From assembly GCA_963812015.1 (NCBI GenBank), contig CAWETI010000002.1, positions 1,472,001 to 1,536,000 on the forward strand: 64,000 nt of DNA, written 5' to 3'. The stretch is from an uncultured delta proteobacterium (GTDB lineage Bacteria > Desulfobacterota > Desulfobaccia > Desulfobaccales > 0-14-0-80-60-11). A program made the position numbers and the translations under genes. The first letter of the stretch is position 1; every line of letters begins with the position of its first letter. Shown here piece by piece: positions 23,624-50,433 of the stretch. The notes below the pieces were generated by a model, which saw nothing but the letters and a program-made list of their open reading frames with translations, searched no databases and was not told the DNA's origin.

Positions 23624-23690
23624 GCCTTGCCTTGGCGTCTTGGCCTTTCGGGTGATTTTTCTCGCAAAGGCGCAAAGGCGCAAAGGCGCG
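23624..23690. repeat. Inverted 8-mer tandem-repeat hairpin (CGCAAAGG family)
   Basis: CTTGGCGT CTTGGCCT ... CGCAAAGG x3. Confidence 0.8.
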
Positions 23691-23704
23691 GGGAGTTGAG
23701 ATAA

Positions 23705-24130
23705 ATGGCCAAGAAAGTAATCGCCCAGATCAAATTGCAGATTCCGGCGGGGCAAGCCAACCCGTCGCCGCCCATCGGTCCGGCCTTGGGGCAGCACGGG
23801 GTCAATATCATGGAATTCTGCAAAACTTATAATGCCCGCACCGCCGGTCAGGAAGGGACCATCATCCCGGTGTTGATCACCGTGTTTGCCGATCGCTCCT
23901 TCACGTTTGTGACCAAGACGCCGCCGGCGTCGGTCCTGATCAAGCAGATGGCCCAGGTGGCCAAGGGCGCCAAGGAGCCCAGCCGGGAAAAGGTGGGGCA
24001 GATCACCCGGGCCCAGTTGGAGGACATCGCCCGGCAGAAGATGCCGGATCTGAACACCACCAACCTGGAAATGGCCATGCATAGCATCGCCGGGACCGCC
24101 CGGAGCATGGGCATCGAGATTGTTGAGTAG
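23705..24130 (+). CDS. rplK: 50S ribosomal protein L11
   Basis: [17 protein letters not shown]. Confidence 0.98.
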
Positions 24131-24200
24131 CAGGGGTCAGGGCTCAGGGACCAGGGGCCAGAACCAAAGCTGACCCCTGATCCCTCACCCCTAACCTCTG
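24131..24200. repeat. Inverted 7-mer tandem-repeat hairpin (CAGGGGT / CTGACCC)
   Basis: CAGGGGT CAGGGCT CAGGGAC CAGGGGC CAG ... CTGACCC CTGATCC CTCACCC CTAACCT CTG. Confidence 0.85.
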
Positions 24201-24223
24201 TATTAAAAGGGAGAGTGATACCG

Positions 24224-24934
24224 ATGGCCAAACATGGCAAGCGATATCGGGAGGCCGCCGCGAAGGTGGACCGCAATCAACGCTATCCCTTCCAGGACGC
24301 CGTCAACCTTGCATTGGAGGTATCCTCCAGCAAGTTTGACGAAACCGCGGAGATTGCGGTGGCCCTGGGAGTGAACCCCCGCCACGCCGACCAGATGGTT
24401 CGGGGGGCGGTGGTTCTGCCCAATGGGCTGGGTAAAACCGTGCGGGTCCTGGTGTTCGCCAAGGGAGAGAAGGAAAAAGAAGCCTTAGATGCCGGCGCCG
24501 ATTATGTGGGGGCCGAAGACCTGATAGAACGCATCAAGGGAGGCTGGCTGGATTTCGACAAGGCCGTGGCCACCCCGGACCTCATGGGCACGGTGGGAAA
24601 GATCGGCAAAATATTAGGTCCCCGGGGGCTGATGCCCAACGTCAAGGTGGGGACCGTCACCTTTGAGGTGGCCAAGGCAGTAAGTGAACTCAAAGGCGGC
24701 AAGGTGGAGTTTCGGGTGGACCGGGCCGGAGTGGTGCATGCCCCCATGGGCAAGGCCTCCTTCGGGGCGGAAAAGCTCCTGCAAAACCTGGCGGCCTTCA
24801 TGGATACCCTGCTCCGGCTGAAGCCCACCACCAGCAAAGGCACATACCTGAAGGGCATCCATCTGAGCACGACGATGGGTCCGGGAATTCCCGTAGACAC
24901 CAGCGACGTTAAGAACCTGGTTCGCCTGCTGTAA
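24224..24934 (+). CDS. rplA: 50S ribosomal protein L1
   Basis: [22 protein letters not shown]. Confidence 0.98.
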
Positions 24935-24946
24935 AGGAGGAGTGGG

Positions 24947-25627
24947 GTGCGTAAGCAAGAAAAAGCCGAAATCGTCCAGGCAATCCAGGAGAAGGTGTCG
25001 AAGTCGCAAATCGGCATCCTGACGGATTTCAAAGGCCTGAAGGTAGAGGATATGACCCGCCTCCGGCGGCAGCTTCAGGAGACCGCCGGTGAGCTCACCG
25101 TGGTGAAGAACACCCTGCTCCGGCGCGCCGCGGCGGGTGATTCTGCCATCAGCCCCCTGATGCCGCACTTCACCGGCCCCAATGCCCTGACCCTGGGGTA
25201 CGAAGACCCGGTGGCGGTGACCAAGGTGCTCATCAAGTTTGCCCAGGATAAACCGATGCTTTCGATCAAGGCGGGGGCCCTGGGGGGCCAGGCCTTGTCG
25301 TTCAAGGACCTGGAAGCACTGAGCAAGCTACCGGCCCGGGAAGTGCTGCTGGGCCAACTGCTGGGCGTGCTGCAGGGCGTGCCCACGGCCCTGGTGACCG
25401 TTTTGGCCGGGGTGATCCGCAACCTGCTCAACGTGCTGGTGGCGTTGAAAGACCAGAAAGCCGAGTCGGAGCAGGCGGCCCCCGAAGCCGCGGCGGCCCC
25501 GGCGGAAACGGCAGGTTCCGAGGCTGAGGCCGCGGCCCCGGCCGAAGCTGAGGCCCCCGAGGCCGAAACCGCGCCGGCCGAGCCCGAGGCGGCGGCCCCG
25601 GCGGATAAGCCGGAAAGCGGCGAGTAA
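24947..25627 (+). CDS. rplJ: 50S ribosomal protein L10 with Ala/Glu/Pro-rich C-terminal tail
   Basis: [14 protein letters not shown]; position between rplA and rplL. Confidence 0.96.
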
Positions 25628-25722
25628 GGGCGTTACCTAAAGAGAAGGCTACGGCGAAACACGCAGCCGAAATCATAGCAACATCTGGGACACTATTTGC
25701 TTGAGGACAAGGAGGAACAGAG

Positions 25723-26106
25723 ATGAGCATTTCACGTGCTGAGGTAGTCGACTACCTGGCCAATATGACGGTGCTGGAGCTTTCCACGCTCATCAAGGAG
25801 CTGGAAGAAAAGTTTGGGGTGTCGGCGGCGGCCCCGGTGGCGATGGTCGCGGCGGGCGGCGTAGCGGCGGAGGCGGCTCCGGCGGCGGAAGAGCAAACCG
25901 AGTTCGACGTGGTCCTGACGGTCTGCGGTCCTAACAAGATCCAGGTGATCAAGGAAGTCCGGGCCGTGACCAGTCTTGGCCTCAAAGAGGCCAAGGAAGC
26001 GGTGGAGAATGTGCCCACCACTTTGAAAGAAGCCATTTCCAAGGCAGAAGCTGAAGAAGTCAAGAAGAAGTTGGAAGCTCAGGGAGCTACCGTCGAAATT
26101 AAGTAG
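25723..26106 (+). CDS. rplL: 50S ribosomal protein L7/L12
   Basis: [18 protein letters not shown]. Confidence 0.98.
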
Positions 26107-26140
26107 TCCCTGAACTTCGGCCATCCTTCAAGGAGTATCC

Positions 26141-29100
26141 ATGGCCAAAGCATTATCGCCTTTACGGGTGTATCGAAAGAACTTCGGCAAGATCGAGCGG
26201 GTGATGGACATTTCTAATCTCATTGAGATGCAGAAAGAGTCCTATCACCGCTTCTTGCAAAAAGACGTGGAACCTGAGGCGCGCTCGGATTACGGCCTCC
26301 AGGGAGTGTTCAAGAGCGTCTTTCCCATTCGGGATTTCAGCGGGGTCTGCTCCCTGGAATTCGTCGAGTACGGTTTGGGTGACCCCAAATACGACGTGGA
26401 CGAATGTCAGCAGCGGGGCATGACCTTTGAAGTGCCCATGAAGATACGGGTGCGCCTGGTGGTCCACGATCTGGGTCCGGACTCCAAAGTCCAGACCATC
26501 CGGGACATCAAGGAGCAGGAGATCTATTTCGGCACCCTGCCTTTAATGACCGAGCACGGCACCTTCATCGTCAATGGCACGGAGCGGGTGGTGGTGAGTC
26601 AGTTGCACCGTTCCCCCGGTCTGTTCATTGACCATGATCGGGCCAAGATTCACTCTAGCGGTAAAATCATCTACTCCGCCCGGTTGATTCCGCTCCGGGG
26701 CTCCTGGATCGATTTCGAGTTCGATCCCAAGGATATCCTCTACGTGCGCATCGACCGGCGGCGCAAGTTTCCCGCCACCATTCTCCTGAAGGCGTTGGGC
26801 TACTCGACGGAAGAGCTTCTTAACTTCTTTTATAAGACCCAGCGGGTGCATCTGGAAGGCGAGACCTTCCAGCAGGCCTTCGTCCCGGAGCTGCTGGTGG
26901 ACAAAACCACGACCACCGACATCCCCGATCCCAAGAGCGGGGATGTCCTGATCAAGAAGGGCAAACGGCTGACCCCGGCGTTGATTCAAAAAATGAAGCG
27001 GGCCGGGGTGGAGTCCATCAGCGGGAGCGCCAGCGACCTGGTGGGCCGGGTGGTGGCCCATGACATCCTGGACCCGGAGAGCGGCGAAGTTCTGGCCCAG
27101 TGCAACGAGATGCTGGCCCAGGATAAGATCGAGCAGTTGCAGGCCCGGGGCATCAAGGAGATCGACCTGCTGTTCATCGACGGGGTCAATACCAGCCCCT
27201 GTCTCAGGAACACCCTGGTGGCGGACAAGACCGGGACCATCAAAGAAGCCGTCCTGGAGATTTACCGCCGCTTGCGGCCCAGCAATCGACCCAACGACGA
27301 AGTGGCCACCAGTTTCTTCCAGAATCTCTTTTTTAATCCGGAATATTACGATCTGTCGCCGGTGGGCCGGCTGAAGTTGGACCTGAAACTCAGGCCTGAA
27401 GAAGAGCGTTTGCCTCTGACCAAGACCACCCTGGACAAAGAGGACATTCTCCTGGCGGTGCGGGAGCTCATCACCCAGAAGGACCGGGAAGGACCCGTGG
27501 ACGACATCGACCACCTGGGCAACCGCCGGGTCCGGGCCGTGGGCGAGCTGCTGGAGAACCAGTTCCGGGTGGGCCTGGTGAGGATGGAGCGGGCCATTAA
27601 GGAACGCATGGCCATCCAGGACCTGGACACCCTGATGCCCCACGACCTGGTGAACGCCAAGCCGGTTCAGGCGGTCATCAAGGAGTTTTTCGGCACCTCC
27701 CAGCTCTCCCAGTTCATGGATCAGACCAACCCCTTGAGCGAAATCACCCACAAGCGGCGTCTGTCCGCCCTGGGACCAGGGGGTCTGACCCGGGAACGGG
27801 CCGGGTTCGAGGTGCGGGACGTACATCCCACCCACTACGGCCGCATCTGTCCGATTGAGACCCCGGAAGGTCCCAACATCGGGCTCATCGTGTCGCTCTC
27901 CACCTTCGCCCGAGTCAATGAGTTGGGGTTCATCGAGACCCCCTACCGGGTGGTGGAAAAGGTGGAAAAGGGCGCCAAGGTGGGAACCCGGGTCACCAAG
28001 AAGATCCGGTATCTGAGCGCCCTGCAAGAAAGCGATAAGGTCATCGCCCAGGCCAACGCCCCCCTGGACGAGAAAGGCCGGTTTCTGACGGAGATGATCG
28101 AGGCCCGGAAAAGCGGCGAATACATTACCGCCAACCCCGCCCAGGTGGACTATATGGACGTGTCCCCCAACCAACTGGTGAGCGTGGCGGCCTCCCTCAT
28201 TCCCTTTCTGGAACACGACGACGCCAACCGGGCCCTGATGGGTTCCAACATGCAGCGCCAGGCGGTACCCCTCTTAACCAGCAGTTCGCCCTTGGTGGGG
28301 ACGGGCATGGAAGGCGTGGTGGCCCGGGATTCCGGGGTCACGATGGTGGCCCGGCGCCGGGGTTTTGTGGAGGACGTTGATTCCACCCGGATCGTCATCC
28401 GGGCGTCGGAGCCCGGCAAGGGGGGCAACGGCTCCCCGGTGGACATCTACAAACTGACGAAATTTCAGCGGACCAATCAGAATACCTGTTTCAACCAGCG
28501 TCCCATCGTGATCCCGGGGGACCTGGTGGAGAAGGGCCAGATCATCGCTGACGGTCCGGCCACCTCCATGGGTGAACTGGCCCTGGGCAAGAACGTCATG
28601 GTGGCCTTCATGCCCTGGGGCGGCTACAATTTTGAAGACTCCATTCTGGTGAGCGAGCGCTTGATCAAAGACGACGTCTTCACCTCGATCCACATCGAAG
28701 AGTTCGAAGTGATGGCCCGGGACACCAAGCTGGGCAAAGAAGATATCACCCGGGATATCCCCAATGTGGGGGAAGACGCGCTGGGCAACCTGGATGAAAG
28801 CGGCATTATCCAGCTGGGTTCGGAAGTGCGCCCCGGTGACATCCTGGTGGGCAAGATCACCCCGAAGGGGGAGACGCAGCTCACCCCGGAAGAGAAGCTG
28901 CTCCGGGCTATTTTCGGCGAGAAGGCCGGGGACGTGAAAGACACGTCGCTCAGGGTCCCCCCGGGGATCGAAGGCGTGGTGATCGACGCCCGGGTCTTTT
29001 CCCGGAAGGGCGTGGAAAAGGATGACCGCAGCCGCTCCATCGAAGATGAGGCGGTGGCCAAGCTGCAGAAGGACCAGGCCGACGAGATCGCCATCATCAC

Positions 29101-30298
29101 CCAGACCTTCCGCCAGAAGCTGAAAGACTTGGTGGTGGGCCAGAAGGTAGCCGACAACCTGGACGACGAGCGCACCGGCAACACCTTCATGCATGCGGGC
29201 GAGGCGGTGCCCCCGGAACTGGTGAACAAGCACGCCCTGGAATTCTGGCGCCACGTGTCCTTCCAGGAACCCGGCATCGAAGACCAGGTGGACCAGACCT
29301 TGGATCGCTACCATGACCAGATCCAGTTGGTGACCATGGTATTTGACGCCAAGCTGGGCCGGCTCCGGAAAGTGGACGAGCTGCCCCCCGGGGTAATCAA
29401 AAAGGTCAAGGTGTTCGTGGCCATGAAGCGGAAGCTGGCCGTGGGCGACAAGATGGCCGGCCGCCACGGCAACAAAGGGGTGGTATCCCGGATTATGCCG
29501 GAAGAAGACATGCCTTATTTTGCCGATGGCACGCCGGTGGACATCGTCCTCAACCCCCTGGGGGTCCCCTCCCGCATGAACGTGGGCCAGGTGTTGGAGA
29601 CCCACATGGGTTGGGCTTCCCATGCCCTGGGGAAAAGCATCGGCGAGATGATCGATAAATTCTACAGCCTGGATTCCATCCAGACCCGGCTGAAGCGGAT
29701 CCTCAATCCCGATGCCACCCTGGGCAAAGAGATCGATTCCCTGGATTACGACGAACTCCGGGAAATCTGGGCAAAACATTACCAGGACGGCATTCACATG
29801 GCTTCGCCGGTCTTTGACGGGGTAACGGAAGATGAGGTCGAGGCCTATCTGGCGGAGGCAGGGCTGCCCACCGGCGGCCAGGCGCGCCTGAGGGACGGCC
29901 GCTCCGGGGAGGAGTTTGACCGGGACGTGACCGTCGGGGTGATGTATATGATGAAACTCCATCACCTGGTGGCCGACAAGATCCATGCCCGGTCCATCGG
30001 CCCCTACTCCCTGGTGACCCAGCAGCCTCTGGGCGGCAAGGCCCAGTTCGGCGGCCAGCGTCTGGGGGAAATGGAAGTCTGGGCCCTGGAAGCCTATGGC
30101 GCAGCCTATACCCTGCAGGAATTCCTGACGGTAAAATCGGACGACGTGGCCGGCCGCACCCGCATGTACGAAAAGATCTTCAAAGGCGAATACGATTTGG
30201 AGGCGGGGCTGCCGGAATCCTTTAACGTCCTGGTGCGGGAGCTCAAGAGCCTGGCTCTTAATGTGGAGCTTCTGAAAAAGGACAAGGACAAGTCCTGA
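26141..30298 (+). CDS. rpoB: RNA polymerase beta subunit
   Basis: [38 protein letters not shown]. Confidence 0.99.
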
Positions 30299-30311
30299 GG
30301 AATAGCCTTAT

Positions 30312-34538
<4,227 letters not shown>

Positions 34539-34542
34539 TAGG

Positions 34543-34572
34543 TTGACAACTAGACGCTCATTGGAATAAAAT
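34543..34572 (+). promoter_or_regulatory. Putative internal promoter for str operon
   Basis: TTGACA, 18 nt, TAAAAT. Confidence 0.6.
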
Positions 34573-34621
34573 AATCAATTTGAGTAGCCTTTTATTCAGA
34601 GCAGTCGGAACCGGAGCATGT

Positions 34622-34993
34622 ATGCCTACAATCAACCAGTTGGTTCGCAAGGGCCGGGAGCTGCAGAAGAAGCGGACCGCGTCTCCAGCCCTGCAAAGCT
34701 GTCCCCAAAAACGGGGTGTGTGTGTCAGGGTCTATACCACCACGCCTAAAAAACCCAACTCGGCCTTGCGCAAGGTGGCCCGGGTGCGGCTCACCAACGG
34801 CATCGAGGTGACCACTTACATCCCCGGGGTCGGCCACAACCTCCAGGAGCACTCAGTAGTGCTCATCCGGGGGGGCCGGGTAAAAGACTTGCCCGGGGTG
34901 CGCTACCATGTGGTCCGGGGCACCCTGGATGCGTCAGGGGTTCAGGATCGCCGGCAAGGACGGTCCAAGTACGGGGCCAAGCGGCCTAAATAA
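34622..34993 (+). CDS. rpsL: 30S ribosomal protein S12
   Basis: [23 protein letters not shown]. Confidence 0.99.
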
Positions 34994-34996
34994 AGA

Positions 34997-35129
34997 CAGT
35001 TTTCGGTTTCCGGTTTTCGGTAAAAGCACAAGACACGACAGAAAACAGAAACCGAAAGATATATTGAGAGATCGGGATTGGCGGACGGTTTTTATCTCAG
35101 AAAACCGGAAACCGAAAACCGAAAACCGA
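34997..35129. repeat. Inverted 7-mer tandem-repeat hairpin (CGGTTTT / CCGAAAA)
   Basis: CAGTTTT CGGTTTC CGGTTTT CGGT ... CAGAAAA CCGGAAA CCGAAAA CCGAAAA CCGA. Confidence 0.85.
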
Positions 35130-35137
35130 GGTAGAAA

Positions 35138-37720: not shown

Positions 37721-38914
37721 ATGGCCAAAAAGAAATTTGAGCGGAAGAAGCCGCACGTGAATGTAGGGACGATTGGTCATATCGATCATGGCAAGACGAC
37801 CTTGACCGCGGCCATCACCAAGCATTTGGCCAAGAAGGGATGGGCGTCGTACATTCCCTTTGACCAGATCGACAAGGCGCCGGAAGAAAAAGAGCGGGGC
37901 ATCACCATCGCCCTGGCCCACGTGGAGTACGAGACCGCCAACCGGCACTATGCCCACGTGGACTGCCCGGGTCACGCCGACTACATCAAGAACATGATCA
38001 CCGGGGCGGCCCAGATGGACGGGGCGATTCTGGTGGTGGGGGCGGATGACGGCCCCATGCCCCAGACCCGGGAGCACATCTTGTTGGCCCGTCAGGTGGG
38101 CGTGCCCTTCATCGTGGTCTTCTTGAACAAAGTCGACCTGGTGGACGACCCGGAACTCATCGAGCTGGTGGAGCTGGAGCTGCGAGAGCTTCTGTCCAAG
38201 TACGAATTTCCCGGGGACGACATTCCCATCATCAAGGGCAGCGCCCTGAAGGCGTTGGAGTCCGAGGATATCAACTCGCCGGAGGTCAAACCCATCTTCG
38301 AGCTGATGGAGGCTTTGGATACTTACATTCCGGAGCCGGTGCGGGACGTGGACAAGCCGTTCCTGATGCCCATCGAGGACGTGTTCACCATCAGCGGCCG
38401 GGGCACGGTGGTCACCGGCCGGTGTGAGCGGGGCCAGATCAAGGTGGGCGAGGAAGTGGAGATCGTCGGTTTCGCCCCCACCCAGAAGACGGTGTGCACC
38501 GGGGTGGAGATGTTCCGGAAGACGCTGGATTACGGTCAGGCCGGGGACAACGTCGGTCTGCTGCTCCGGGGCATCAAGAAGGACGAAGTGGAGCGGGGCC
38601 AGGTGGTGGCCAAGCCGGGGTCGATCACGCCCCACACGCGGTTCAAGGCCGAGGTGTACGTACTGAACAAGGAGGAGGGCGGGCGGCACACGCCGTTCTT
38701 CACCGGATACCGGCCGCAATTTTATCTGAGGACCACGGACGTCACCGGGGTGGCCACGCTGCCCGAGGGAGTGGAGATGGTGATGCCCGGGGACAACGTG
38801 TCCATGGAGGTGACGTTGATCACCCCCGTGGCCCTGGAAAAAGAACTCCGTTTCGCCATCCGGGAAGGCGGCCGCACCGTGGGCGCCGGCGTGGTGAGCG
38901 AAATCATAGAATAG
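37721..38914 (+). CDS. tuf: Elongation factor Tu (copy 2)
   Basis: Same protein as 21054-22247. Confidence 0.99.
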
Positions 38915-38998
38915 TTTGTAAGGGGCATCGATACCGATGGCGGGCAGGAACGCCCGTCCTAGGGAGAGCCTGAGACATCCTGGAATAAGGATAACTAC

Positions 38999-39307: not shown

Positions 39308-39309
39308 GA

Positions 39310-39390
39310 CAGGGGTCAGGGATTAGGGGTCAGGGGAGAGCAGGATTTTTAGCCTCACACTGACAACTGACTACTGGCTACTGACTACTG
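39310..39390. repeat. Inverted 7-mer tandem-repeat element (CAGGGGT / CTGACTA)
   Basis: CAGGGGT CAGGGAT TAGGGGT CAGGGGA ... CTGACAA CTGACTA CTGGCTA CTGACTA CTG. Confidence 0.85.
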
Positions 39391-39400
39391 GAGAGATACA

Positions 39401-40027: not shown

Positions 40028-40031
40028 CGGT

Positions 40032-40655: not shown

Positions 40656-40942
40656 AGGCTTATCATTATTTGATCAAAGGGCCGATCATCACGGAAAAGA
40701 CCCACACCCAGAAGGAGGCGGCCAACAAACTGACCTTCCGGGTGAATGTCAAGGCCAACAAGATCGAGATCAGGAAGGCTATTGAAACTATCTTCAAGGT
40801 CAAAGTCCTGGGGGTGAACACCATCCACGTCAAGGGGAAGGAAAAGCGCGTGGGCAAGACCGGTGGCATGCGCCCCGACTGGAAAAAGGCGGTGGTCACC
40901 TTGGCTCCCGGAGAGAAGATCGCCGGTTTCGACGCGCTGTAA
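40652..40942 (+). CDS. rplW: 50S ribosomal protein L23
   Basis: PIITEK, WKKAVVTL. Confidence 0.98.
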   Translation: MKAYHYLIKGPIITEKTHTQKEAANKLTFRVNVKANKIEIRKAIETIFKVKVLGVNTIHVKGKEKRVGKTGGMRPDWKKAVVTLAPGEKIAGFDAL

Positions 40943-40943
40943 T

Positions 40944-40995
40944 CTGGCGTCTTGGCGTGGGGAATGAGTCTCACGCACAGGCGCAAAGGCGCACA
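40944..40995. repeat. Inverted 8-mer repeat hairpin (CGCAAAGG family)
   Basis: CTGGCGT CTTGGCGTG ... TCACGCACAGG CGCAAAGG CGCAC. Confidence 0.75.
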
Positions 40996-41010
40996 TAAGG
41001 AAGAACGCAG

Positions 41011-41838
41011 ATGGCATTGATTTCCCGAAAGCCTACCTCCCCAGGGCGGCGGTTCCAGACGGCGACGGATTTTGCCGAGATCACTCGGAGCGAGCCGGAG
41101 AAGAGCCTGGTCCAGGCCCTGAAAAAGTCGGGGGGGCGGAATTGTTACGGCCGGGTCACCGCCCGGCACCGGGGTGGGGGCCACAAGCGGCAATATCGCC
41201 TCATCGATTTCAAGCGCAACAAGCTTGAGGTTCCGGCCAAGGTGGCCACCATCGAGTACGACCCCAACCGCACCACGCGGATTGCGCTGCTCCACTATGT
41301 GGACGGGGAGAAGCGCTACATCCTGGCGCCCCAGGAGCTTAGGGTGGGGGACATGGTGGTCTCGAGTCAGGAGGCGGATATCAAGCCGGGCAACGCCCTG
41401 CCCCTGAAGAACATCCCCACCGGCACCCTGGTGCACAACGTCGAGTTGAAGCCGGGGAAGGGCGGGCAGATGGCCCGGGCGGCGGGCTCTGCGGCCCAGT
41501 TGATGGCCAAGGAAGGGAAGCAGGCCCACCTGAAGCTGCCGTCGGGGGAAGTGCGGATGGTGCCGTTGGACTGCCGGGCCACCATCGGCCAGCTCAGCAA
41601 CGTGGAGCAGGAGAACGTCTCCCTGGGCAAGGCCGGGCGGAAGCGCTGGCAGGGAAAGCGGCCCCACGTCCGGGGCGTAGCCATGAACCCGGTGGATCAC
41701 CCCATGGGCGGCGGCGAAGGCAAGTCGTCGGGCGGCCGGCATCCATGTACCCCCTGGGGGGTGCCCACCAAGGGATACAAGACCAGAAAGCCCAAAGCCA
41801 GCGACCGGGATATCGTTAAACGCCGGTCTAAGAAGTAG
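41011..41838 (+). CDS. rplB: 50S ribosomal protein L2
   Basis: [17 protein letters not shown]. Confidence 0.99.
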
Positions 41839-41849
41839 AGGGGAGAATC

Positions 41850-42134
41850 GTGGCCCGTTCATTAAAAAAGGGACCCTATGTGCAGGACAGCCTCCAGGCC
41901 AAGGTATTGCAGGCCCGGGAAACCCAGGATCGTCGGGTGATCAAGACCTGGTCGCGGCGTTCCACTATCACTCCGGAATTTATCGGAATAACCCTGGCGG
42001 TCCATAACGGCAAGAAGTTTATTCCGGTCTACGTCACCGAAAACATGGTGGGGCACAAGTTAGGAGAGTTTTCCCCCACCCGGCACTTCGGGGGCCATGC
42101 CGGCGACCGCAAAACCAAAATGGGTAAGAAGTAG
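41850..42134 (+). CDS. rpsS: 30S ribosomal protein S19
   Basis: [16 protein letters not shown]. Confidence 0.99.
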
Positions 42135-42136
42135 CC

Positions 42137-42478
42137 ATGGAAATCAAGGCGAGCGCCAAATATCTGCGCATCTCGCCCACCAAGCTGCGGCTGGTGGCCC
42201 GGATCCTCCCCGGTAAGAAGGTGGAAGATGCCCTGGCCATGCTCCAGTACATGCCCCAAAAGGGGGCGCGGTTGGTGCGCAAGGTGGTCATGTCCGCGGT
42301 GGCCAATGCCGAGCAACGGCCCCAAATAGACGTGGATACCCTGGTAATCAAAGGCGTCCAGGTGGATGGGGGTCCCAGCCTCAGGCGATTCCAAGCCCGG
42401 GCCATGGGGCGGGTCAACCGCATCCTCAAGCGGAGCAGCCATATCACCGTAGTCCTGAAAGAGGGACTCGGGAAATGA
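42137..42478 (+). CDS. rplV: 50S ribosomal protein L22
   Basis: [19 protein letters not shown]. Confidence 0.98.
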
Positions 42479-42500
42479 AGAGTTTATAAGGAGGCATGGA

Positions 42501-43154
42501 TTGGGCCAGAAAGTACACCCCATCGGTTTCCGTTTAGGAAGCTTTCGCAAATGGGATTCCGTTTGGTTCGCCCGGAAGGATTTTGCAGCGCTGGTTCTGG
42601 AAGACCGCAGGATTCGGGAGTTCATCAAGGCTGACAAGGAACTCAAGGGATCGGGGATTGCCGGACTGGATATCAAGCGGGCGGCCAATAAGCTGACCAT
42701 TAAGATCCATACCTCCCGGCCGGGCATGGTCATCGGCCAGAAGGGTAAGAAAATCGACGACCTGCGCCGCCGGCTGGAGAAGCTGGTGGGACGGGAACTC
42801 GTCATCGACGTGCAGGAAGTGCGCAAACCGGAGATCAACGCCCAGCTGGTGGCGGAAAACATCGCCCAGCAGCTGGAACGCCGGGTGTCGTTCCGCCGGG
42901 CCATGAAGAAGTCGGTGGGCCAGGCCCTGAAGTTCGGGGCCAAGGGCATCAAGATCCGCTGCAAGGGCCGGCTGGCCGGGGCGGAAATTGCCCGGCAGGA
43001 GACGTACCGGGAAGGGCGGGTGCCACTGCACACCCTGCGGGCCCTTATTGATTACGGGTTCGCCGAGGCCAAGACCACCTATGGGCTGATCGGGGTAAAG
43101 ACCTGGATCTTCCACGGCGAGGTCCTGGGGTCCCAAGAAGGGATGAGCTTATAG
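42501..43154 (+). CDS. rpsC: 30S ribosomal protein S3
   Basis: [25 protein letters not shown] start. Confidence 0.99.
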
Positions 43155-43164
43155 CAGACTAACT

Positions 43165-43229
43165 TTGTCACCCTGAGCATGGACCCCCGGCCGGAATGAT
43201 CTGAGGCTGCAGGGGGCTCAGCCTGACAA
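43165..43229. repeat. Palindromic insertion with GTCA.CCTGAGC termini
   Basis: TTGTCACCCTGAGC ... GCTCAGCCTGACAA; termini like 62593-62662. Confidence 0.65.
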
Positions 43230-43243
43230 CATGGGAATAAGAC

Positions 43244-43675
43244 ATGCTTAGTCCAAAACGGGTAAAACATCGGAAAGTAATGCGGGGCCGCCGCAGGGGC
43301 AAGGCCACCCGGGGCAATTACGTGGCCTTCGGGGATTATGGCCTCATGGCCGAGGAATGCGGCTGGATTACGGCCCAGCAAATCGAGGCGGCCCGGATCG
43401 CCATCACCCGGCACGTCAAGCGGGGCGGCAAGATCTGGATCCGGGTTTTTCCGGATAAGCCCTTCACCAAGAAGCCGGCGGAAACCCGCATGGGGAAAGG
43501 GAAGGGCGGTCCGGAGGGTTGGGTGGCGGTGGTGCGGCCCGGTCTAATTCTCTATGAGATGGCCGGGGTGGACCGGGAAGTCGCCAAAGAAGCCATGCGT
43601 CTGGCCTCCCACAAGCTCTCCATCCCCACCAAGTTTGTGGAACGGGAGCACATGGCGGCGGAGGCGACGACATGA
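43244..43675 (+). CDS. rplP: 50S ribosomal protein L16
   Basis: [12 protein letters not shown]. Confidence 0.99.
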
Positions 43676-43866
43676 AGGCTGCGGATTTACGGGACCTGAC
43701 CCGGGAAGAACTCCTGGCCAAGTTGAAGGAGGTTTCGGAAGAACTCTTCAACTTGAATTTTCAACATAGCCGACAGCAACTGGACAATACCGCTCGATTG
43801 GGGCAGGCCAGGAAGGATATGGCCCGGGTCCAGACGGTACTGCGGGGAAAGGCCGGGCAAGAATAG
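43672..43866 (+). CDS. rpmC: 50S ribosomal protein L29
   Basis: ELFNLNFQ...RKDMARVQT; operon position. Confidence 0.95.
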
Positions 43867-43886
43867 CTCGGGAGGGTTAGGCAGGT

Positions 43887-44147
43887 ATGGAAAAGCAGCG
43901 CGGTGTGCGCAAGACCAGGATTGGTTTGGTGGTCAGCGACAAAATGGAAAAGACCGTGGTGGTGGAAGTGAAACGCCTGGTGGCCCACCCCCTCTATCAT
44001 AAGATTATCCGGCGCCGGGCCCGGATCAAGGCCCATGACCCCAACAATACCTGCCGGGTGGGCGACAAGGTACTCCTGGAGGAGACCCGTCCCCTGAGCC
44101 GGGATAAACATTGGCGGATCAAGGAAGTCCTGGAGAAGGCCCAGTAA
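43887..44147 (+). CDS. rpsQ: 30S ribosomal protein S17
   Basis: [19 protein letters not shown]. Confidence 0.98.
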
Positions 44148-44171
44148 GCCCAAGGGCGTGAGGATAGAATC

Positions 44172-44540
44172 ATGATCCAGGTTCAGACACAAATGACGGT
44201 GGCGGACAACTCCGGCGCCAAGAAGGTATCCTGTATCCGGGTCCTGGGAGGCACCAGGCGGCGGTATGCCGGGGTGGGGGATATCGTCATCGTGGCGGTT
44301 AAGGAGGCCCTGCCTCACTCCAAGGTGAAAAAGGGCGACGTGATGCGGGCCGTGGTGGTACGCACCGTCAAGGAGACCCGGCGCCCCGATGGCTCGCACA
44401 TCCGGTTTGACGATAACTCGGCGGTGCTCATCAACCCCCAGGGCGATCCCATCGGCACCCGGATATTCGGGCCGGTGGCCAGGGAACTTCGGGCCAAGAA
44501 ATTTATGAAGATCATCTCATTGGCCCCGGAGGTGCTCTAA
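44172..44540 (+). CDS. rplN: 50S ribosomal protein L14
   Basis: [20 protein letters not shown]. Confidence 0.99.
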
Positions 44541-44893
44541 TGGGAAAGTACAAGAAGGCCCTCGCAGAGCCCGTGAGGATCCGGTTGAAGAAGAACGATC
44601 TGGTGGAGGTCACCACCGGCAAAGAGCAAGGTAAAACCGGCAAGATCCTGAAGGTGTTCCGGGAAAAGAATCAGGTGCTGATCGAAAAGGTCAACATGAT
44701 CAAGCGGCACACCCGGCCTAGTCCCACCACGGGGCAGGGGGGGATCGTGGAAAAAGAAGCGCCGGTTTACGTCGCCAAGGTGAAGCTCATTTGCCCCAAG
44801 TGCGCCACCGGCACCCGTTTTAAGATGGCCCAGACCGGGGAAGGCAAGAAGACCCGGGTATGTTTAAAATGCAAGGAAATGATTGATGGCTGA
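44540..44893 (+). CDS. rplX: 50S ribosomal protein L24
   Basis: [20 protein letters not shown]. Confidence 0.97.
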
Positions 44894-45584
44894 CAAGGGA
44901 TCTGGAAAAGACAAAGCCAAAGGCCCCGGCAAATTGGCCGACAAAGCCGCAAGCAAAGCCGCGGATAAGAAAGCGGCCAAGGCGGCTGGCCAGCCGATGG
45001 AAAAATCGGCTGAGAAGTCGGCGGCCCCGGCGGGCTTCAAAGGGACGCCGCGTCTGCGGGATTATTATCGGACCGAGTGTGTGCCCCGCATGATGCAGGA
45101 ATTCAAGTATAAGAGCCCCATGCAGGTGCCCCGACTGCTGAAGGTGGTGGTCAATATCGGGCTGGGGGAGGCCATCCAGAACATCAAGCTGTTGGAGTCG
45201 GCCTCGGTGGAACTGGGGACCATCACCGGCCAAAAGGCGGTGGTGACCCGGGCCAAGAAGTCCATCGCCGCCTTTAAGCTGAGGGAAGGCATGCCCATCG
45301 GCTGCATGGTCACCCTGCGCCGGGACCGGATGTACTACTTCTTCGACAAGCTGGTGAACGTGGTGCTGGCCCGGGTGCGAGACTTCCGGGGAGTGAGCGA
45401 GCGGGCTTTTGACGGCCGGGGCAATTACACCCTGGGTCTCAAAGAGCAGATTATCTTCCCGGAGATCGACTACGACAAGATCGACAAGATCAAAGGGATG
45501 AACATCACCGTCGTCACCAGCGCTCCCACCGATGAAGAAGGGAGATTCTTGTTGAAGCTGATGGGCTTACCTTTCAAGAAATAA
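44886..45584 (+). CDS. rplE: 50S ribosomal protein L5 with Lys/Ala-rich N-terminal extension
   Basis: [22 protein letters not shown]; exact start uncertain. Confidence 0.97.
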
Positions 45585-45589
45585 CAGGG

Positions 45590-45615
45590 GTAGGGCGGGG
45601 TGACCCCGGCCCTAC
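45590..45615. repeat. REP-like palindrome
   Basis: GTAGGGCGGGGTGACCCCGGCCCTAC. Confidence 0.65.
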
Positions 45616-45625
45616 GGAGATCAGG

Positions 45626-45811
45626 ATGGCCAAGAAATCATTGATAGCCAAGGCAAAGCGCCAACCGAAGTATCCGGTGCAGAACTATAACCGCTGTCCA
45701 CTGTGCGGTCGTCCCCGGGCGTTTCTCAGACGGTTCGGCATCTGCCGCATCTGTTTCCGCTCCATGGCCCTCAGGGGAGAGATCCCCGGGGTAACCAAAT
45801 CCAGCTGGTAG
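45626..45811 (+). CDS. rpsN: 30S ribosomal protein S14 (short zinc-binding type)
   Basis: RCPLCGRP...CRICFR...KSSW. Confidence 0.98.
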
Positions 45812-45819
45812 GACAAACT

Positions 45820-46217
45820 ATGTGCATGACAGACCCCATCGCCGATATGCTGACCCGGATTCGCAATGCCGGGGGGCGCGTTTCGACAAGGTTGACATTC
45901 CTGCTTCCCGCATGAAGATCAACCTAGCGCGCATCCTCAAGGAAGAAGGGTTCATTAAAAACTATAAGGTCATTAAAGATAATCGCCAAGGCATCCTGCG
46001 AGTCTATCTCAGGTACAGCGACCGTCAGCAACCGCTCATCCAGGGCTTGAAACGGGTTAGTAAACCCGGGCGCCGGGTCTATACCGGCCATGCCGAGCTT
46101 CCCAAAGTCCAGGGGGGCCTGGGGGTGGCGGTTATTTCCACCTCCCAGGGGGTCATCACCGACCGCCAGGCCCGGAAGCTGAGCGTGGGCGGCGAGGTCT
46201 TGTGCGAGATCTGGTAA
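45820..46217 (+). CDS. rpsH: 30S ribosomal protein S8, frameshifted in this sequence at G run 45871-45876
   Basis: [19 protein letters not shown] in one frame, [11 protein letters not shown]...SKPGRRVY...GGEVLCEIW in another; one extra G restores a single ORF. Confidence 0.95.
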
Positions 46218-46227
46218 AGGTAACTAT

Positions 46228-46767
46228 ATGAGCCGCATCGGAAAACAACCGGTGCCTTTGCCCAAAGGGGTAAAGGTAAAGTTGGAAGAGGGAAAGTTGG
46301 TGGTTACCGGCCCCCGGGGGACCCTGAGCCAGGTCATGCCGCCTCGGGTCAACCTCAACATCTCGGACAAAGAGATCAGGGTGGAACCCCAGGATGACAG
46401 CCGGATCACCCGGTCCTACTGGGGCCTGGCCCGCACCCTGGTGGCCAACATGGTCATCGGGTCGACGGACGGATTCACCAAGGTCCTGGAACTGGTGGGC
46501 ACCGGCTACAAGGTGGAAGCCAAGGGCGATATCCTGGTGTTCAACCTGGGATACTCGAACCCGGTGGAGTTTCCCCTCCCCAAAGGGATCACGGCCAAGG
46601 TGGAAAAGGCCAACCGCATCGAAATCACCGGGGCCAACAAGGAAGTGTTGGGACAGACGGTGGCGGTGATTCACAGGCTGCGGCCACCCGACCCGTATAA
46701 GGGCAAGGGGATCAAGTTTGCCGGCGAAGTGATACGGCGCAAGGTGGGCAAGGCCGGCGGCCGTTAA
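46228..46767 (+). CDS. rplF: 50S ribosomal protein L6
   Basis: [18 protein letters not shown]. Confidence 0.99.
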
Positions 46768-46781
46768 AGGAGACAGGTGGC

Positions 46782-47138
46782 ATGAACCCCAAGGAAGCGG
46801 CGCGGCTCAAGCGCAAACAGCGGATCAAGAAGAAAATCGGGGGCGGGGAGCGTTTGCGTCTCTCGGTCTTCCGGAGCTGCAAGCATATGTACGCGCAGAT
46901 CATCGACGACGGTAAAGGCCAGACCCTGGTGGCGGCCTCCACCTTGAGCGGAGAGCTGAAGGATCAGCTGGGCGGCTTGAAGAAAACCGACGCGGCCAAG
47001 GCCGTGGGCAAGCTGCTGGCGGGCAAGGCCAAGGCTCAGGGCATTGAAAAAGTAGTCTTCGACCGTAACGGGTTTCTCTACCATGGCCGGGTGAAAGCCG
47101 TGGCGGACAGTTGCCGGGAAAACGGCCTGGAATTTTAG
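46782..47138 (+). CDS. rplR: 50S ribosomal protein L18
   Basis: [21 protein letters not shown]. Confidence 0.99.
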
Positions 47139-47147
47139 GAGGTAAGC

Positions 47148-47645
47148 TTGTTCGAGTCAGAGGCAGCGGAGCAGTTAACCGATAAGGTGGTGAGCATCAG
47201 TCGTGTCGCCAAGGTCGTCAAAGGCGGGCGCCGCTTTCGTTTCAGCGCCATTGTGGTGGTAGGTGACGGAGCCGGGCGCGTCGGCGCCGGTCTGGGCAAG
47301 GCCCATGAAGTGCCGGAAGCCATCCGCAAGGCAGTGGAGCAGGCCAAGAAGAACATGATCACGGTCCCCATCCTCAACAGCACCATCCCATACCAGGTGG
47401 TGGGGGAATTCGGGGCCGGCCGGGTGCTCTTAAAGCCGGCTTCGGAAGGCACCGGGGTCATCGCCGGCGGTCCGGTGCGGGCGGTGGTGGAAGTGGCGGG
47501 CATCAAAAACGTCCTCACCAAGTGTTTGGGTTCCCACAACCCCCACAATGCGGTGAAAGCCACCATGGTGGCCTTGCAGATGCTGGCGTCCCCTGAGGAC
47601 GTGGCGGCCCGGCGGAACCGGCCTCTGGCGGAGATACTGGGGTAA
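47148..47645 (+). CDS. rpsE: 30S ribosomal protein S5
   Basis: [23 protein letters not shown] start. Confidence 0.99.
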
Positions 47646-47647
47646 AA

Positions 47648-47713
47648 CTTTGCGTCGTTGCGTCTTGGCGCCTTAGCGTGAAATAACTCACGCAAAGTCG
47701 CAAAGGCGCAAGG
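47648..47713. repeat. Inverted 8-mer repeat hairpin (CGCAAAGG family)
   Basis: CTTTGCGT CGTTGCGT CTTGGCGC CTTAGCGT GA ... TCA CGCAAAGT CGCAAAGG CGCAAGG. Confidence 0.85.
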
Positions 47714-47727
47714 ATAGAGGAATAGCT

Positions 47728-47916
47728 ATGTTTCTCGAGATAACCTTAAAGAAAAGTCCCATCGGCCGGCCGCCGAAGCACCGTCTAACCCTGAAGACCC
47801 TGGGGTTGACCCGCTTGCAGAAAACGGTGCGGCACCGGGAAACCCCTGCGATTTTGGGGATGGTGCACCAAGTGGGGCACCTCCTCGAAGTGCGGCAGGT
47901 TCCCGAAGGAGAATAG
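47728..47916 (+). CDS. rpmD: 50S ribosomal protein L30
   Basis: [18 protein letters not shown]. Confidence 0.97.
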
Positions 47917-47919
47917 CAG

Positions 47920-48360
47920 ATGCGCCTATCTGAATTACAACCCAGTCCGGGGTCCAAGCATAAGAAGAAACGGGTCGGCCGCGGTCCTGGTTCGGGTTGG
48001 GGCAAAACTGCGGGCCGAGGCTTCAAAGGGCAGAATTCCCGGGCCGGCGGCGGCACCAGGCCGGGGTTTGAAGGCGGCCAAATGCCTTTGGTCCGGCGGA
48101 TCCCCAAGCGGGGTTTCACCAATATCTTCCGGCAAACCTGGACCATCGTCAACCTGCGGGACCTGAAGCGGTTCCCGGCGGAGGCGGTGGTGGATAAGGA
48201 CGCCTTAAAGGAAGCGGGCCTGGTGAAAAGCCAAGTGAAGCGGATCAAGCTCTTGGGCCAGGGGGAAGTGACCGTGCCCCTGGTGGTCAAGGTGCAGGCG
48301 GTGAGTTCCCAGGCCCGGAGCCGGATCGAAGCTGCCGGAGGGCGAGTGGAGGTCATCTAG
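47920..48360 (+). CDS. rplO: 50S ribosomal protein L15
   Basis: [22 protein letters not shown]. Confidence 0.99.
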
Positions 48361-49668
48361 GTGTCGGCGTTTTCCAGTATTGCCAAGATCCCAGAGTTGA
48401 AGCGCCGCATCCTGTTTACCTTGCTGATGCTGGCGGTGTATCGCCTGGGCTGCCAGATCCCCACCCCGGGGATCGATGCCGACGCCCTGATGAAGTTTTT
48501 TGCGGCCCAACGGGGCACCATCTTCGGCTTGTTCGACATGTTCTCCGGCGGCGCCCTGGAGCGCCTGAGCGTTTTTGCCCTGGGGATCATGCCGTACATC
48601 AGCGCCGCCATCATCATCGAACTCCTTAAGGTGGTGATCCCGGGTCTGGAGAAGCTCTATAAAGAAGGGGAGTCGGGGCAGAAGAAGATCAAGCAGTACA
48701 CCCGGTACGGCACCGTGGTCATCGCGGCCGTCCAGGGGATCGGCATCGCCGTGGGCCTGGAGAGCATGACCACCGGCGCCGCCCACCAGACGGTGGTCCT
48801 GCATCCAGGCTGGGCCTTCCGCCTGATGACCGTGCTCACCCTGACCTCGGGCACCGCGTTCATCATGTGGCTGGGGGAAATGATTACCGAGCGGGGCATC
48901 GGCAACGGCATCTCGCTGATCATCTTTGCCGGGATCGTGGCCCGGATGCCTTCGGCCCTCATCAAGACCTTGGAGTTGATCAAGACGGGTGAAATCATGC
49001 CCGTCCTGATGGTCCTGCTGATGGTGGCGATGGTGGTGGTGGTGGGTTTCATCGTGTTTGTGGAGCGGGCCCAGCGGCGCATCCAGGTACAATACGCCCG
49101 GCGGGTGGTGGGGCGCAAAATGTACGGCGGCCAGAGCACCCACCTGCCCCTGAAGGTGAACACCTCCGGGGTTATTCCCCCCATCTTCGCCTCGTCGCTC
49201 CTGATGTTTCCGGCCACGATTGCGAGCTTCGTCCACAATGACTGGGTCAAATGGGCGGCGGACGCCATGTCACCGGGGGGCGGGATTCACGACTTTATTT
49301 ATGTAGGCCTCATCTTCTTTTTCTGCTATTTCTACACCGCGGTGACCTTTAACCCGGTGGACGTGGCGGATAATTTGAAAAAGTGGGGCGGCTATGTTCC
49401 GGGCCTGCGGCCGGGGAAGCCCACCTCAGAATATATTGACCGGATCCTGACGCGTATCACCCTGGGAGGTGCGGTTTACGTGTCGGCAGTGTGCGTGCTG
49501 CCCTCCATTCTGATCCGGAAGTTCAATGTCCCCTTTTACTTCGGGGGTACGGCCCTGTTAATCGTGGTGGGGGTGGCCATGGATACCATGAGCCAGATCG
49601 AATCGCATCTATTGACCCGCCACTACGAAGGTTTCATGAAAAAACGCATGAGCCGAGTACGGCGTTGA
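48361..49668 (+). CDS. secY: Preprotein translocase SecY
   Basis: [31 protein letters not shown]. Confidence 0.99.
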
Positions 49669-49687
49669 CCTAAATAAGGAGGAAGTT

Positions 49688-50365
49688 ATGAATCTGATCC
49701 TGTTGGGCGGCCCAGGGGCGGGCAAAGGTACGCAAGCCAAGAAACTTATCGAGAAATTTCAGATCCCTCAGATTTCCACCGGCGACATCCTCCGGGCGGC
49801 GGTGAAAGAAGGGACGGAAATGGGCCGCAAGGCCAAAGAATACATGGATTCCGGGAAACTGGTCCCCGATGAAGTGGTCATCGGCATCATCAAAGATCGC
49901 CTGGCGCAGGCGGACTGCAAGAAAGGGTTCATCCTGGACGGCTTTCCCCGGACGGTGCCCCAGGCCGAAGCTTTGGACAAGGTGCTGACCGACCTGGGCA
50001 CCAAGATCGACCACGTGGTCAGCATCGACGTGGACGAAGAAGCATTGGTGGTTCGCCTTACCGGGCGGCGGACCTGCAAAAACGCGGCCTGCGGCCAGAT
50101 GTTCCACATCAAGTTCACTCCCGCCAAGAAGGAAGGGGTATGCGACAAGTGCGGCGCCGAGCTCTATCAGCGGGACGACGACAACGAAGCTACGGTGCGC
50201 AACCGCCTGGCCACTTACAACCAGGCCACCGCGCCGCTCATCGGTTACTACAGCGCTAAACATCTGGTGCGGCCGATTAAAGGGGTGGGGGGCATCGACG
50301 ACATCTTTAAACAGATCGTGAACATCGTCTCGGGAGCCGGCTGCAGCTGTGGCTGCAAGCACTAA
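49688..50365 (+). CDS. adk: Adenylate kinase (zinc-lid type)
   Basis: GGPGAGKGT, DGFPR, lid Cys pairs, QRDDD. Confidence 0.99.
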   Translation: MNLILLGGPGAGKGTQAKKLIEKFQIPQISTGDILRAAVKEGTEMGRKAKEYMDSGKLVPDEVVIGIIKDRLAQADCKKGFILDGFPRTVPQAEALDKVLTDLGTKIDHVVSIDVDEEALVVRLTGRRTCKNAACGQMFHIKFTPAKKEGVCDKCGAELYQRDDDNEATVRNRLATYNQATAPLIGYYSAKHLVRPIKGVGGIDDIFKQIVNIVSGAGCSCGCKH

Positions 50366-50370
50366 AGTTT

Positions 50371-50433
50371 TTCGGCGTTCTTTGCGTCTTGGCAGGACGC
50401 CGCACGCAAAGGCGCCAAGACGCAGAGGCGCAA
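50371..50433. repeat. Inverted 8-mer repeat hairpin (CGCAAAGG family)
   Basis: TTCGGCGT T CTTTGCGT CTTGGC ... CA CGCAAAGG CGCCAAGA CGCAGAGG CGCAA. Confidence 0.8.

Follow-up and report, generated by a model that had tools for sequence, protein, structure and literature searches.

Seven junctions of a ribosomal superoperon in an uncultured delta proteobacterium are occupied by hairpins built from inverted arrays of short tandem repeats

The DNA analyzed here, a stretch of 64,000 nt from an uncultured delta proteobacterium of the Desulfobacterota, related to sulfate reducers (assembly GCA_963812015.1, contig CAWETI010000002.1; hereafter the window, meaning the whole stretch), contains a 32-kb ribosomal part. 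On its + strand, four tRNA genes are followed by tuf, rpmG, tRNA-Trp, secE, nusG, rplKAJL, rpoBC, rpsLG, and fusA, and then by a second tuf, the S10/spc/alpha operons including adk and map, and finally rplQ, with a strong terminator 3' of rplQ at 54571-54608. From nusG to infA there are 36 consecutive genes with 35 junctions. Most of these junctions are very short, as the initial annotation of this DNA had stated: 25 of the 35 measure 45 nt or less. Ten measure 60 nt or more, and seven of these 10 carry inverted arrays of short tandem repeats, which are the subject of this study: nusG-rplK (J1), rplK-rplA (J2), rpsL-rpsG (J3), rpsJ-rplC (J4), rplW-rplB (J5), rpsE-rpmD (J6), and adk-map (J7). 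The genes flanking all seven junctions (nusG, rplK, rplA, rpsL, rpsG, rpsJ, rplC, rplW, rplB, rpsE, rpmD, adk, and map) were confirmed with NCBIfam models, and the starts of the bordering genes are consistent with these models. All seven elements are located in the ribosomal part of the window and none in the remaining 32 kb. Within the ribosomal region, the best match to a sigma-70-like promoter (34543-34572; TTGACA, 18 nt, TAAAAT; 11/12) falls in the short rpoC-rpsL gap, outside the repeat elements.

The elements share one layout: two to five degenerate copies of a 7-8-nt unit, a loop, and then reverse-complement units. The unit itself defines three families: CGCAAAGG in J1, J5, J6, and J7; CAGGGGT in J2 and J4; and GTTTTCG/CGAAAAC in J3. 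Tandem Repeats Finder (TRF) reported 15 rows with a period of 7 or 8 across the 64 kb, nine of which lie within the seven junctions, where they occur in J1 to J6; the 5' arms of J1, J5, J6, and J7 are too degenerate for detection by TRF. In every element, at least one arm has a lag-p self-identity of 0.58-0.85, and the TRF consensus sequences form inverted pairs with zero to two mismatches in J2, J3, and J4. The spacer between the arrays varies from 6 to ~87 nt, most pairs being tight hairpins with 6-10-nt loops. In all seven cases, the stem starts 0-9 nt past the stop codon and ends 7-22 nt ahead of the next start codon. A Shine-Dalgarno-like stretch is found just beyond the 3' arm in J2, J3, J4, and J5, and within or partly within the 3' arm in J1, J6, and J7. 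Sequence, TRF, and folding (see below) all confirm the initial annotation in that seven junctions hold inverted 7-8-nt arrays; all three units had been named correctly, and the proposal that the elements sit non-polarly between a stop codon and a ribosome-binding site (RBS) is supported.

The CGCAAAGG family is the largest, with four copies in the window, all of them, like the other elements, on the + strand. In J1 (junction 23622-23704, stem 23623..23694; fold -35.6 kcal/mol, z -2.85), a degenerate 5' arm of the CCTTGGCG type faces a 3' arm with three perfect copies of CGCAAAGG at 23663-23689 (TRF period 8, 3.4 copies). J5 (junction 40943-41010, element 40944..40988; -24.1 kcal/mol, z -3.16) is the shortest copy of the family, with a TRF row at 40974-40993 and an nhmmer E value of 1.5e-13. 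In J6 (junction 47646-47727, element 47648..47720; -37.0 kcal/mol, z -5.31; TRF row at 47691-47711), the CUUU at the foot of the stem pairs with GAGG in the rpmD RBS. J7 (junction 50366-50440, element 50375..50431; -34.3 kcal/mol, z -3.42), which has units of the CGCAAAGG/CGCCAAGA type, has motif matches at 50405 and 50421, and the GAGG ahead of the map start lies within its 3' arm. The motif CGCAAAGGCGC, with at most one mismatch, matches the window 10 times, and all 10 matches are in J1, J5, J6, and J7 (expected 2.0). In the family alignment, these copies also have flanking motifs in common, for example GCGTCTTGGC and TCACGCA.

The CAGGGGT family has two copies. J2 (junction 24131-24214, element 24131..24200; -41.5 kcal/mol, z -3.56) has four CAGGGNN units in its 5' arm and four CTGAYCC-type units in its 3' arm (TRF rows 24131-24149 and 24170-24200, period 7; inverted pair with one mismatch). 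J4 (junction 39308-39400, element 39310..39383; -29.0 kcal/mol, z -3.13) has four CAGGGGT-type units and 4.6 CTGACTA-type units (TRF rows 39310-39336 and 39359-39390). The two 5' arms are almost identical in alignment. The 3' arm of J4, in contrast to the CTGAYCC units of J2, is a whole array of the variant unit CTGACTA and complements its own 5' arm only partially; because it is uniform in one variant, it looks like the product of array-wise turnover, not point decay. The core of a unit is conserved and one or two of its positions vary, as in CAGGGNN and CGCNAAGR. J3 (junction 34994-35137, element 34999..35119; -41.4 kcal/mol, z -4.16) is a composite element, in which three GTTTTCG units are followed by a short internal complement (ACAGAAA twice), an inner hairpin, and four GAAAACC units; its arrays (34999-35021 and 35100-35129) form a TRF inverted pair with no mismatches. 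Searches with blastn-short using each junction as a query returned only arm-level matches, all within the respective families.

Each of the seven elements folds into one dominant stem-loop of 16-28 pairs (-24.1 to -41.5 kcal/mol). Compared with dinucleotide shuffles, z scores range from -2.85 to -5.31, and zero or one of 200 shuffles folded as well. As to long junctions outside this set, rplJ-rplL is unstructured (z -0.35), and tuf-rpsJ (z -2.65) and rpsC-rplP (z -1.72) contain ordinary hairpins. In five of the seven elements (J1, J4, J5, J6, and J7), the sense RNA is more stable than the antisense by 6-11 kcal/mol, an excess due to G-U pairs. This suggests, with n = 7, that pairing at the level of the transcript is what is tolerated or kept. 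Transcription-linked C-to-T bias could also contribute to an asymmetry of this type. The seven stem-loops lack a U-tail, and the 41 terminator-like sites detected (18 + 23) all fall outside J1 to J7; the same scan does recover the terminator at 54571-54608 after rplQ. Intrinsic terminators were therefore ruled out. Known ribosomal protein leader or autoregulatory RNAs were ruled out as well, as no Rfam covariance model matched: at the gathering score, the search of the whole window gave no match at the junctions, and at E values up to 1, the search of 22500-54800 gave only two chance matches to miRNA models, both on J2.

We ran two detectors on the window and on a set of 80 loci, 13 of Desulfobacterota type and 67 from other phyla. 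The 13 loci were sorted by record title and hit rank, four of them (L002, L005, L010, and L037, with generic Proteobacteria or Pseudomonadota titles) being placed by judgement. Under the first, an objective rule, the minimum free energy (MFE) stem must have at least 12 pairs, and self-identity at lag 6-9 must reach 0.65 in one arm and 0.4 in the other. In its strict form, it recognizes four of the seven elements and in its relaxed form six, J5 failing narrowly. Of 14 junctions of the window tested (all 40 nt or longer), six pass the rule, as do three of 81 junctions of the 13 Desulfobacterota-type loci versus none of 429 junctions of the 67 loci from other phyla. The second detector, which calls for TRF arrays with complementary consensus in both arms, finds three junctions in the window and three in the 151,249 bp of the 13 Desulfobacterota-type loci; in the 1,196,403 bp of the other loci, it finds one dubious pair (period 6, two mismatches).

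Direct arrays are also present in the window. Between tRNA-Thr and the first tuf gene, immediately ahead of the tuf RBS, is an array of the 9-nt unit TTTTGCAAG (4.6 copies, 20977-21026). It was flagged by the detector because its unit holds the palindrome TTGCAA, and we rejected it as an inverted array, as it folds no better than shuffles (z +1.29). Other direct arrays, with units of 7-9 nt and located outside the ribosomal operons, are GGCGAAAA at 10192-10228, in the divergent region between nfo and lptG, and one of the GGGGAAAA type at 14680-14746, upstream of a cluster of small open reading frames (ORFs). Three copies of AAAGTTC (57519-57540) are found in a 53-nt junction of two co-directional genes with no assigned function; this stretch is unstructured (z +1.99).

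The closest public relative that we found is L001, a Thermodesulfobacteriota metagenome-assembled genome, with L4 87% identical; L002, a 2.6-kb contig, is as close, and the next matches are at 58% or less. L001 covers four of the seven junctions, and three of the four carry diverged homologous elements. Its rpsE-rpmD junction (9031-9112) is equal in length to J6 (82 nt) and 77% identical (62/81); 21 of the 28 pairs of J6 are kept, seven are broken, and none is compensatory. Its rplW-rplB junction has an element of the same family as J5 that is 48 nt longer and 68% identical where aligned, and the corresponding junction of L002 has a further diverged, non-tandem structure (z -0.93). The adk-map junction of L001 retains a remnant of J7, 59% identical, that has lost its folding (z 0.01). 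At rpsJ-rplC, the L001 sequence is unrelated to the CAGGGGT element of the window (47% identity); it holds a 154-nt TTTTCGG/CAGAAAA element (461-614) that aligns end to end with J3 of the window and whose interior, outside the arrays, outscores 1980 of 2000 shuffles. At four-fold degenerate sites, the window and L001 agree in 73% of cases (799/1095; rplX, rpsE, and adk were left out for indels). In these alignments, the junctions diverge at about the synonymous rate, with indels. The comparison thus indicates that position is kept, sequence drifts at approximately the synonymous rate, and families can change places. Conservation of stem versus non-stem positions at J6 was rejected as evidence of selection: the structure was derived from the window's own sequence and the contrast is therefore biased. 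The initial annotation had considered that the junctions might prove unchanged across relatives; in L001, they have drifted, decayed, or been swapped. On the other hand, the gene-filled alleles and the copies beyond ribosomal junctions that it had also proposed to check for were not found in the material described here.

The rpsC-rplP junction of L001 (4417-4626) is 210 nt long versus 89 nt in the window and folds to -87.9 kcal/mol. A direct array of GGTTCTG is found there together with G/C-run hairpins and a CCCAAG...CTTGGGAACGA hairpin in two copies, and the junction looks like a nested insertion of several small elements.

Versions of the inverted array with units of their own are present in three more distant loci of Desulfobacterota type: L006, L021, and L037. 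In L006, rpsC-rplP has GTTATCG/CTGATAA units, and rpsE-rpmD also carries an array. In L021, eight copies of ACCAGATA at rplE-rpsN are opposite TTCTGAC units. In L037, rplB-rpsS has CGCAGAGA/TCTCCGCG units (z -6.29), and two hairpin elements, at rplE-rpsN and rplF-rplR, are approximately 84% identical to each other. None of the 32 pairs in these paralogues shows a compensatory change; a change from G-C to A-U first noted by eye was dropped, as it is not a pair of the MFE structure. The junctions rpsJ-rplC, rplW-rplB, rpsC-rplP, and rpsE-rpmD are also long in several other Desulfobacterota-type loci. Further heptamer arrays were seen in L021 after rpsH (7974-8060; three copies of CAGAAGA with a partial complement downstream) and in L019 at rplF-rplR (16543-16634; direct units of the CATTCAG/CGTTCAG type). 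Many heptamers across these genomes and in the literature have a YCTGA or CAGAA core in common.

The three families have four, two, and one copies in the window, all in ribosomal junctions. No member of the CGCAAAGG family was found beyond its four ribosomal junctions, whether elsewhere in the window or across 1.35 Mb of loci, and an nhmmer profile of the family, run against the window and the 80 loci, recovered only its seven input copies (best other E value, 3.1).

Several known types of repeat invite comparison. Cyanobacterial short tandemly repeated repetitive (STRR) sequences are intergenic heptamer arrays, and the likeness to them drawn in the initial annotation is apt. Repetitive extragenic palindromes (REPs) and the bacterial interspersed mosaic elements (BIMEs) that they form in enterobacteria and pseudomonads are short imperfect palindromes without a terminator tail, present in many copies in transcribed intergenic DNA and often within operons; they stabilize mRNA in some operons, number in the hundreds per genome, and are associated with REP-associated tyrosine transposases (RAYTs). 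J1 to J7 share the short imperfect palindrome, the transcribed intergenic setting, and the lack of a terminator tail; however, the arms of REPs are not made of tandem sub-repeats. Compared with a miniature inverted-repeat transposable element, J1 to J7 do have inverted arrays, whereas no flanking direct repeat was visible by eye at their ambiguous boundaries.

The closest counterparts are published. The paired sites reported from Geobacter metallireducens (Aklujkar et al. 2009; PMC2700814) lie on opposite strands, and each site has three to five tandem octa- or heptanucleotide repeats; classes 1 to 3 comprise 24, 21, and 8 pairs, with a variable distance within the pair, and their units are GTTGCTYN, TCTCCGTS[Y], and MTYCTGA. 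One pair is located between proB and proA, and the distance from class 1 sites to neighboring insertion sequences is fixed (PMC2700814, supplement S7). The sites were proposed to bind integration host factor (IHF) or HU, which is a hypothesis. The likeness extends to inverted tandem arrays of hepta- and octamers, several families per genome, an intergenic location including intra-operon sites, and the same phylum-level group. By eye, the J4 unit CTACTGA agrees with MTYCTGA at six of seven positions, TTCTGAC of L021 and CTGACTCCTG of L006 resemble class 3, and TCTCCGCG of L037 resembles class 2. In contrast, CGCAAAGG, CAGGGGT, and GTTTTCG match none of the class consensus sequences given there (nor the Xanthomonas GGGAATC). 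The G. metallireducens sites are not beside ribosomal protein genes (the words "ribosomal protein" occur 0 times in Table S4 of PMC2700814), and class 1 pairs have long, unrelated spacers, whereas here most are tight hairpins with 6-10-nt loops.

In Xanthomonas, Rehm et al. (2015; PMC4692102) reported 70-75 convergent pairs of GGGAATC arrays per genome that are able to form stem-loops, lie preferentially between co-directional genes within 50 bp of a stop codon, and are transcribed. The type of repeat is kept and its length varies across related species, and four units are preferred, a preference echoed by the 5' arms of J2 and J4. The phylum and the unit are different, most families here are not G-rich, and the study mentions no concentration in ribosomal operons. 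The same study describes GGGGA(C/T)T repeats in Nostoc, and its reference list cites work on REPs as insertion-sequence targets (PMC4692102). Direct TAACTGA heptamers were described in marine Beggiatoaceae, cyanobacteria, and Bacteroidetes (MacGregor 2015; PMC4679880). According to that paper, they are intergenic, near start codons, also in ribosomal protein operons (before rplC, rpsD, and fusA), and often stand in for the Shine-Dalgarno sequence; the CTGATAA units of L006 rpsC-rplP are a rotation of TAACTGA. However, those arrays are direct (169 direct sets versus one inverted in the Guaymas genome), whereas here the inverted pair defines the elements. In G. bemidjiensis, multicopy sequences occupy 12% of intergenic regions, some of them palindromic and some direct repeats of 6-42 nt (PMC2996986). 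Thus, J1 to J7 are further families of a known, unexplained kind of repeat whose architecture has already been published, and the system that the initial annotation called poorly described has precedents in G. metallireducens (PMC2700814) and Xanthomonas (PMC4692102). By analogy of architecture, the elements of the window are objects of the same type as the paired sites of the former and the inverted GGGAATC arrays of the latter.

We put the chances at about even that J1 to J7 are lineage-specific families of REP-like, dispersed short-tandem-repeat hairpins. Whole elements would be copied into new junctions, by transposition in trans or by recombination; arrays would then be altered by unit slippage, and elements by indels and drift. 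Within essential, tightly coupled operons, only inserts that fold on themselves would survive: such an insert would cause no termination, would expose no long unstructured RNA to Rho, and would keep the stop codon near the next RBS, and its 5' arm would be melted by terminating ribosomes in every round of translation. This argument draws on the preference of Rho for unstructured RNA and on the footprint of the ribosome. We propose that essential operons retain the elements because an insert that folds on itself and has no tail is non-polar; possible advantages (a barrier to 3'-exonucleases, an RNase III site, or translational coupling, for example) would be secondary.

A number of observations weigh against dispersed, tolerated hairpins. 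Dispersal was seen only among ribosomal junctions, and the non-ribosomal half of the window has no copy, whereas a generally dispersed repeat should also lie elsewhere. No clear inverted array emerged when 22 non-ribosomal intergenic regions (5,675 bp) were scanned on both strands; three spots were flagged in them, one of which is a direct array and two are marginal, without visible repeats. No mobilizing enzyme is encoded in the window: transposase, RAYT, four-helix-bundle, and GxxExxY genes are absent from the 50 + 18 ORFs scanned. Neither a target-site duplication nor a conserved terminus was seen by eye in the flanks, where tandem units blur the boundaries. The folding asymmetry does not extend to every element: the antisense strand of J2 folds better than the sense strand (-54.3 versus -41.5 kcal/mol), and J3 is a tie; where it does hold, in five of seven, the excess of G-U pairs on the sense strand would also fit a selected RNA. 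All four junctions that can be compared in L001 are long and occupied, three of them by homologous elements; thus, the hairpins could equally be kept by selection. Finally, the rates given above come from a single pairwise comparison, as L001 alone among close relatives covers more than one junction.

A serious alternative, which the initial annotation had also raised in the form of mRNA stability or processing elements and to which we assign a real but clearly minor probability, is that the hairpins are selected RNA elements on a polycistronic mRNA. They may act as barriers to 3'-5' exonucleases, as RNase III or RNase E sites at which the superoperon transcript would be divided into stable units, or as coupling devices whose 5' arm is melted by the terminating ribosome, which would free the next RBS. 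Every copy is located between a stop codon and the next RBS, 0-9 nt past the stop, and in J1, J6, and J7, the stem includes the RBS or has it at its base. The stems have 16-28 pairs, and stems of this size are long enough for RNase III. The occupancy of the L001 junctions, the length of the same junctions in several other Desulfobacterota-type loci, and the count of seven elements in the ribosomal 32 kb versus none in the other 32 kb are also what selection would give. However, no compensatory change was found in 28 pairs (J6 versus L001) or in 32 pairs (the L037 paralogues), and junction identity is close to that of four-fold sites. The adk-map hairpin was lost in L001, and the rplW-rplB structure of L002 is a different, non-tandem one. 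In J2, J3, J4, and J5, the stem leaves the RBS free. One operon contains three unrelated units, which speaks against a single specific recognition, and the tandem-unit build of the hairpin is left unaccounted for.

A bolder form of the mobile view, which we consider unlikely, is that bacteria have here an equivalent of the foldback elements of eukaryotes: non-autonomous mobile hairpins whose inverted ends would be arrays of 7-8-nt units bound by a transposase or nuclease, aimed at the gap between stop codon and RBS in very highly transcribed operons, non-polar, with families replacing one another at the same junction over species divergence and with master copies, bearing cargo or encoding the enzyme, elsewhere in Desulfobacterota genomes. 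Very unlikely, in our judgement, is the related proposal that the inverted arrays are the ends of gene-carrying mobile elements (with four-helix-bundle, Avd-like, or GxxExxY genes) that are empty or non-autonomous here. The initial annotation had offered such mobile footprints as one reading, and part of it holds: there are multi-copy families, and a different family occupies rpsJ-rplC in L001. A spacer of 6 to ~87 nt is also what variable cargo would lead one to expect, and the G. metallireducens insertion sequences at a fixed distance from class 1 sites, as presented in PMC2700814, fit as well. On the other hand, no junction in the 13 Desulfobacterota-type loci exceeds 210 nt; thus, no allele there holds a gene. 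The annotation was right that the window has no cognate enzyme among the ORFs scanned. It also stated that such arrays flank four-helix-bundle or GxxExxY genes in other genomes; we found no literature making this link, and the window has no such gene family.

We attach very little probability to DNA-level arrays bound by a bending or regulatory protein (of the IHF/HU type, after Aklujkar et al.) that would organize the local DNA. A conserved core with variable positions (CAGGGNN, CGCNAAGR) is reminiscent of GTTGCTYN and MTYCTGA in PMC2700814, and the direct arrays of similar period at 10192-10228, 14680-14746, and 20977-21026 are promoter-side. However, the seven sites are intra-operon, and none of them includes the one strong promoter-like site, which precedes rpsL; three unrelated units would require three proteins; the G-U asymmetry between sense and antisense would be meaningless for duplex DNA; and the published IHF/HU assignment is itself a hypothesis (PMC2700814). 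The least probable reading is that J2 and J4 are switches between a hairpin and a G-quadruplex formed by their 5'-arm G-tracts in RNA or in the non-template DNA strand: a regular-expression search places two of the 10 four-G-tract motifs of the window there (J2 24133-24157, J4 39312-39336), the four units of these arms agree with the preference reported for GGGNATC repeats in PMC4692102, and the 3' arm of J4 is depleted of most C residues, leaving the G-tracts weakly paired, but at most two of the seven elements are covered and J2 has a fully complementary C-rich arm that gives it a hairpin of -41.5 kcal/mol.

At least three bacterial groups are known to have inverted short-tandem-repeat arrays. 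The ribosomal region described here is a natural test bed for them: one essential, co-transcribed 30-kb operon string has seven copies of three families, and the same junctions in a close relative show elements that have drifted, lengthened, been lost, or been swapped. If the hairpins are tolerated passengers, they show which inserts essential coupled operons can bear, namely self-folding ones with no U-tail, which would be of use in designing operons. If the hairpins are selected, they would represent a lineage-wide means of segmenting or stabilizing ribosomal protein mRNA.

Some other features of the window are worth recording. The two tuf copies (21054-22247 and 37721-38914) are followed by stretches (22248-22323 and 38915-38998) that begin alike (TTTGTAAG) and end alike (ATCCTGGAATAA) ahead of rpmG and rpsJ, respectively; thus, the similarity of the two copies seems to extend beyond the coding region. 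The L10 protein encoded by rplJ is long (226 aa), and the 168-position family model matches its residues 4-171. TRF detected 12-nt and 9-nt tandem repeats in the 3' part of the gene (25343-25555), and the sequence suggests that L10 may have a repeat-built C-terminal extension. Two riboswitches are located outside the ribosomal part: an M-box magnesium riboswitch (1988-2155, - strand) upstream of a gene for an MgtE-like transporter (606-1901, - strand), and a cyclic di-GMP riboswitch of the c-di-GMP-I-GGC family (15175-15254, + strand) ahead of small ORFs with no assigned function (15265-15959).

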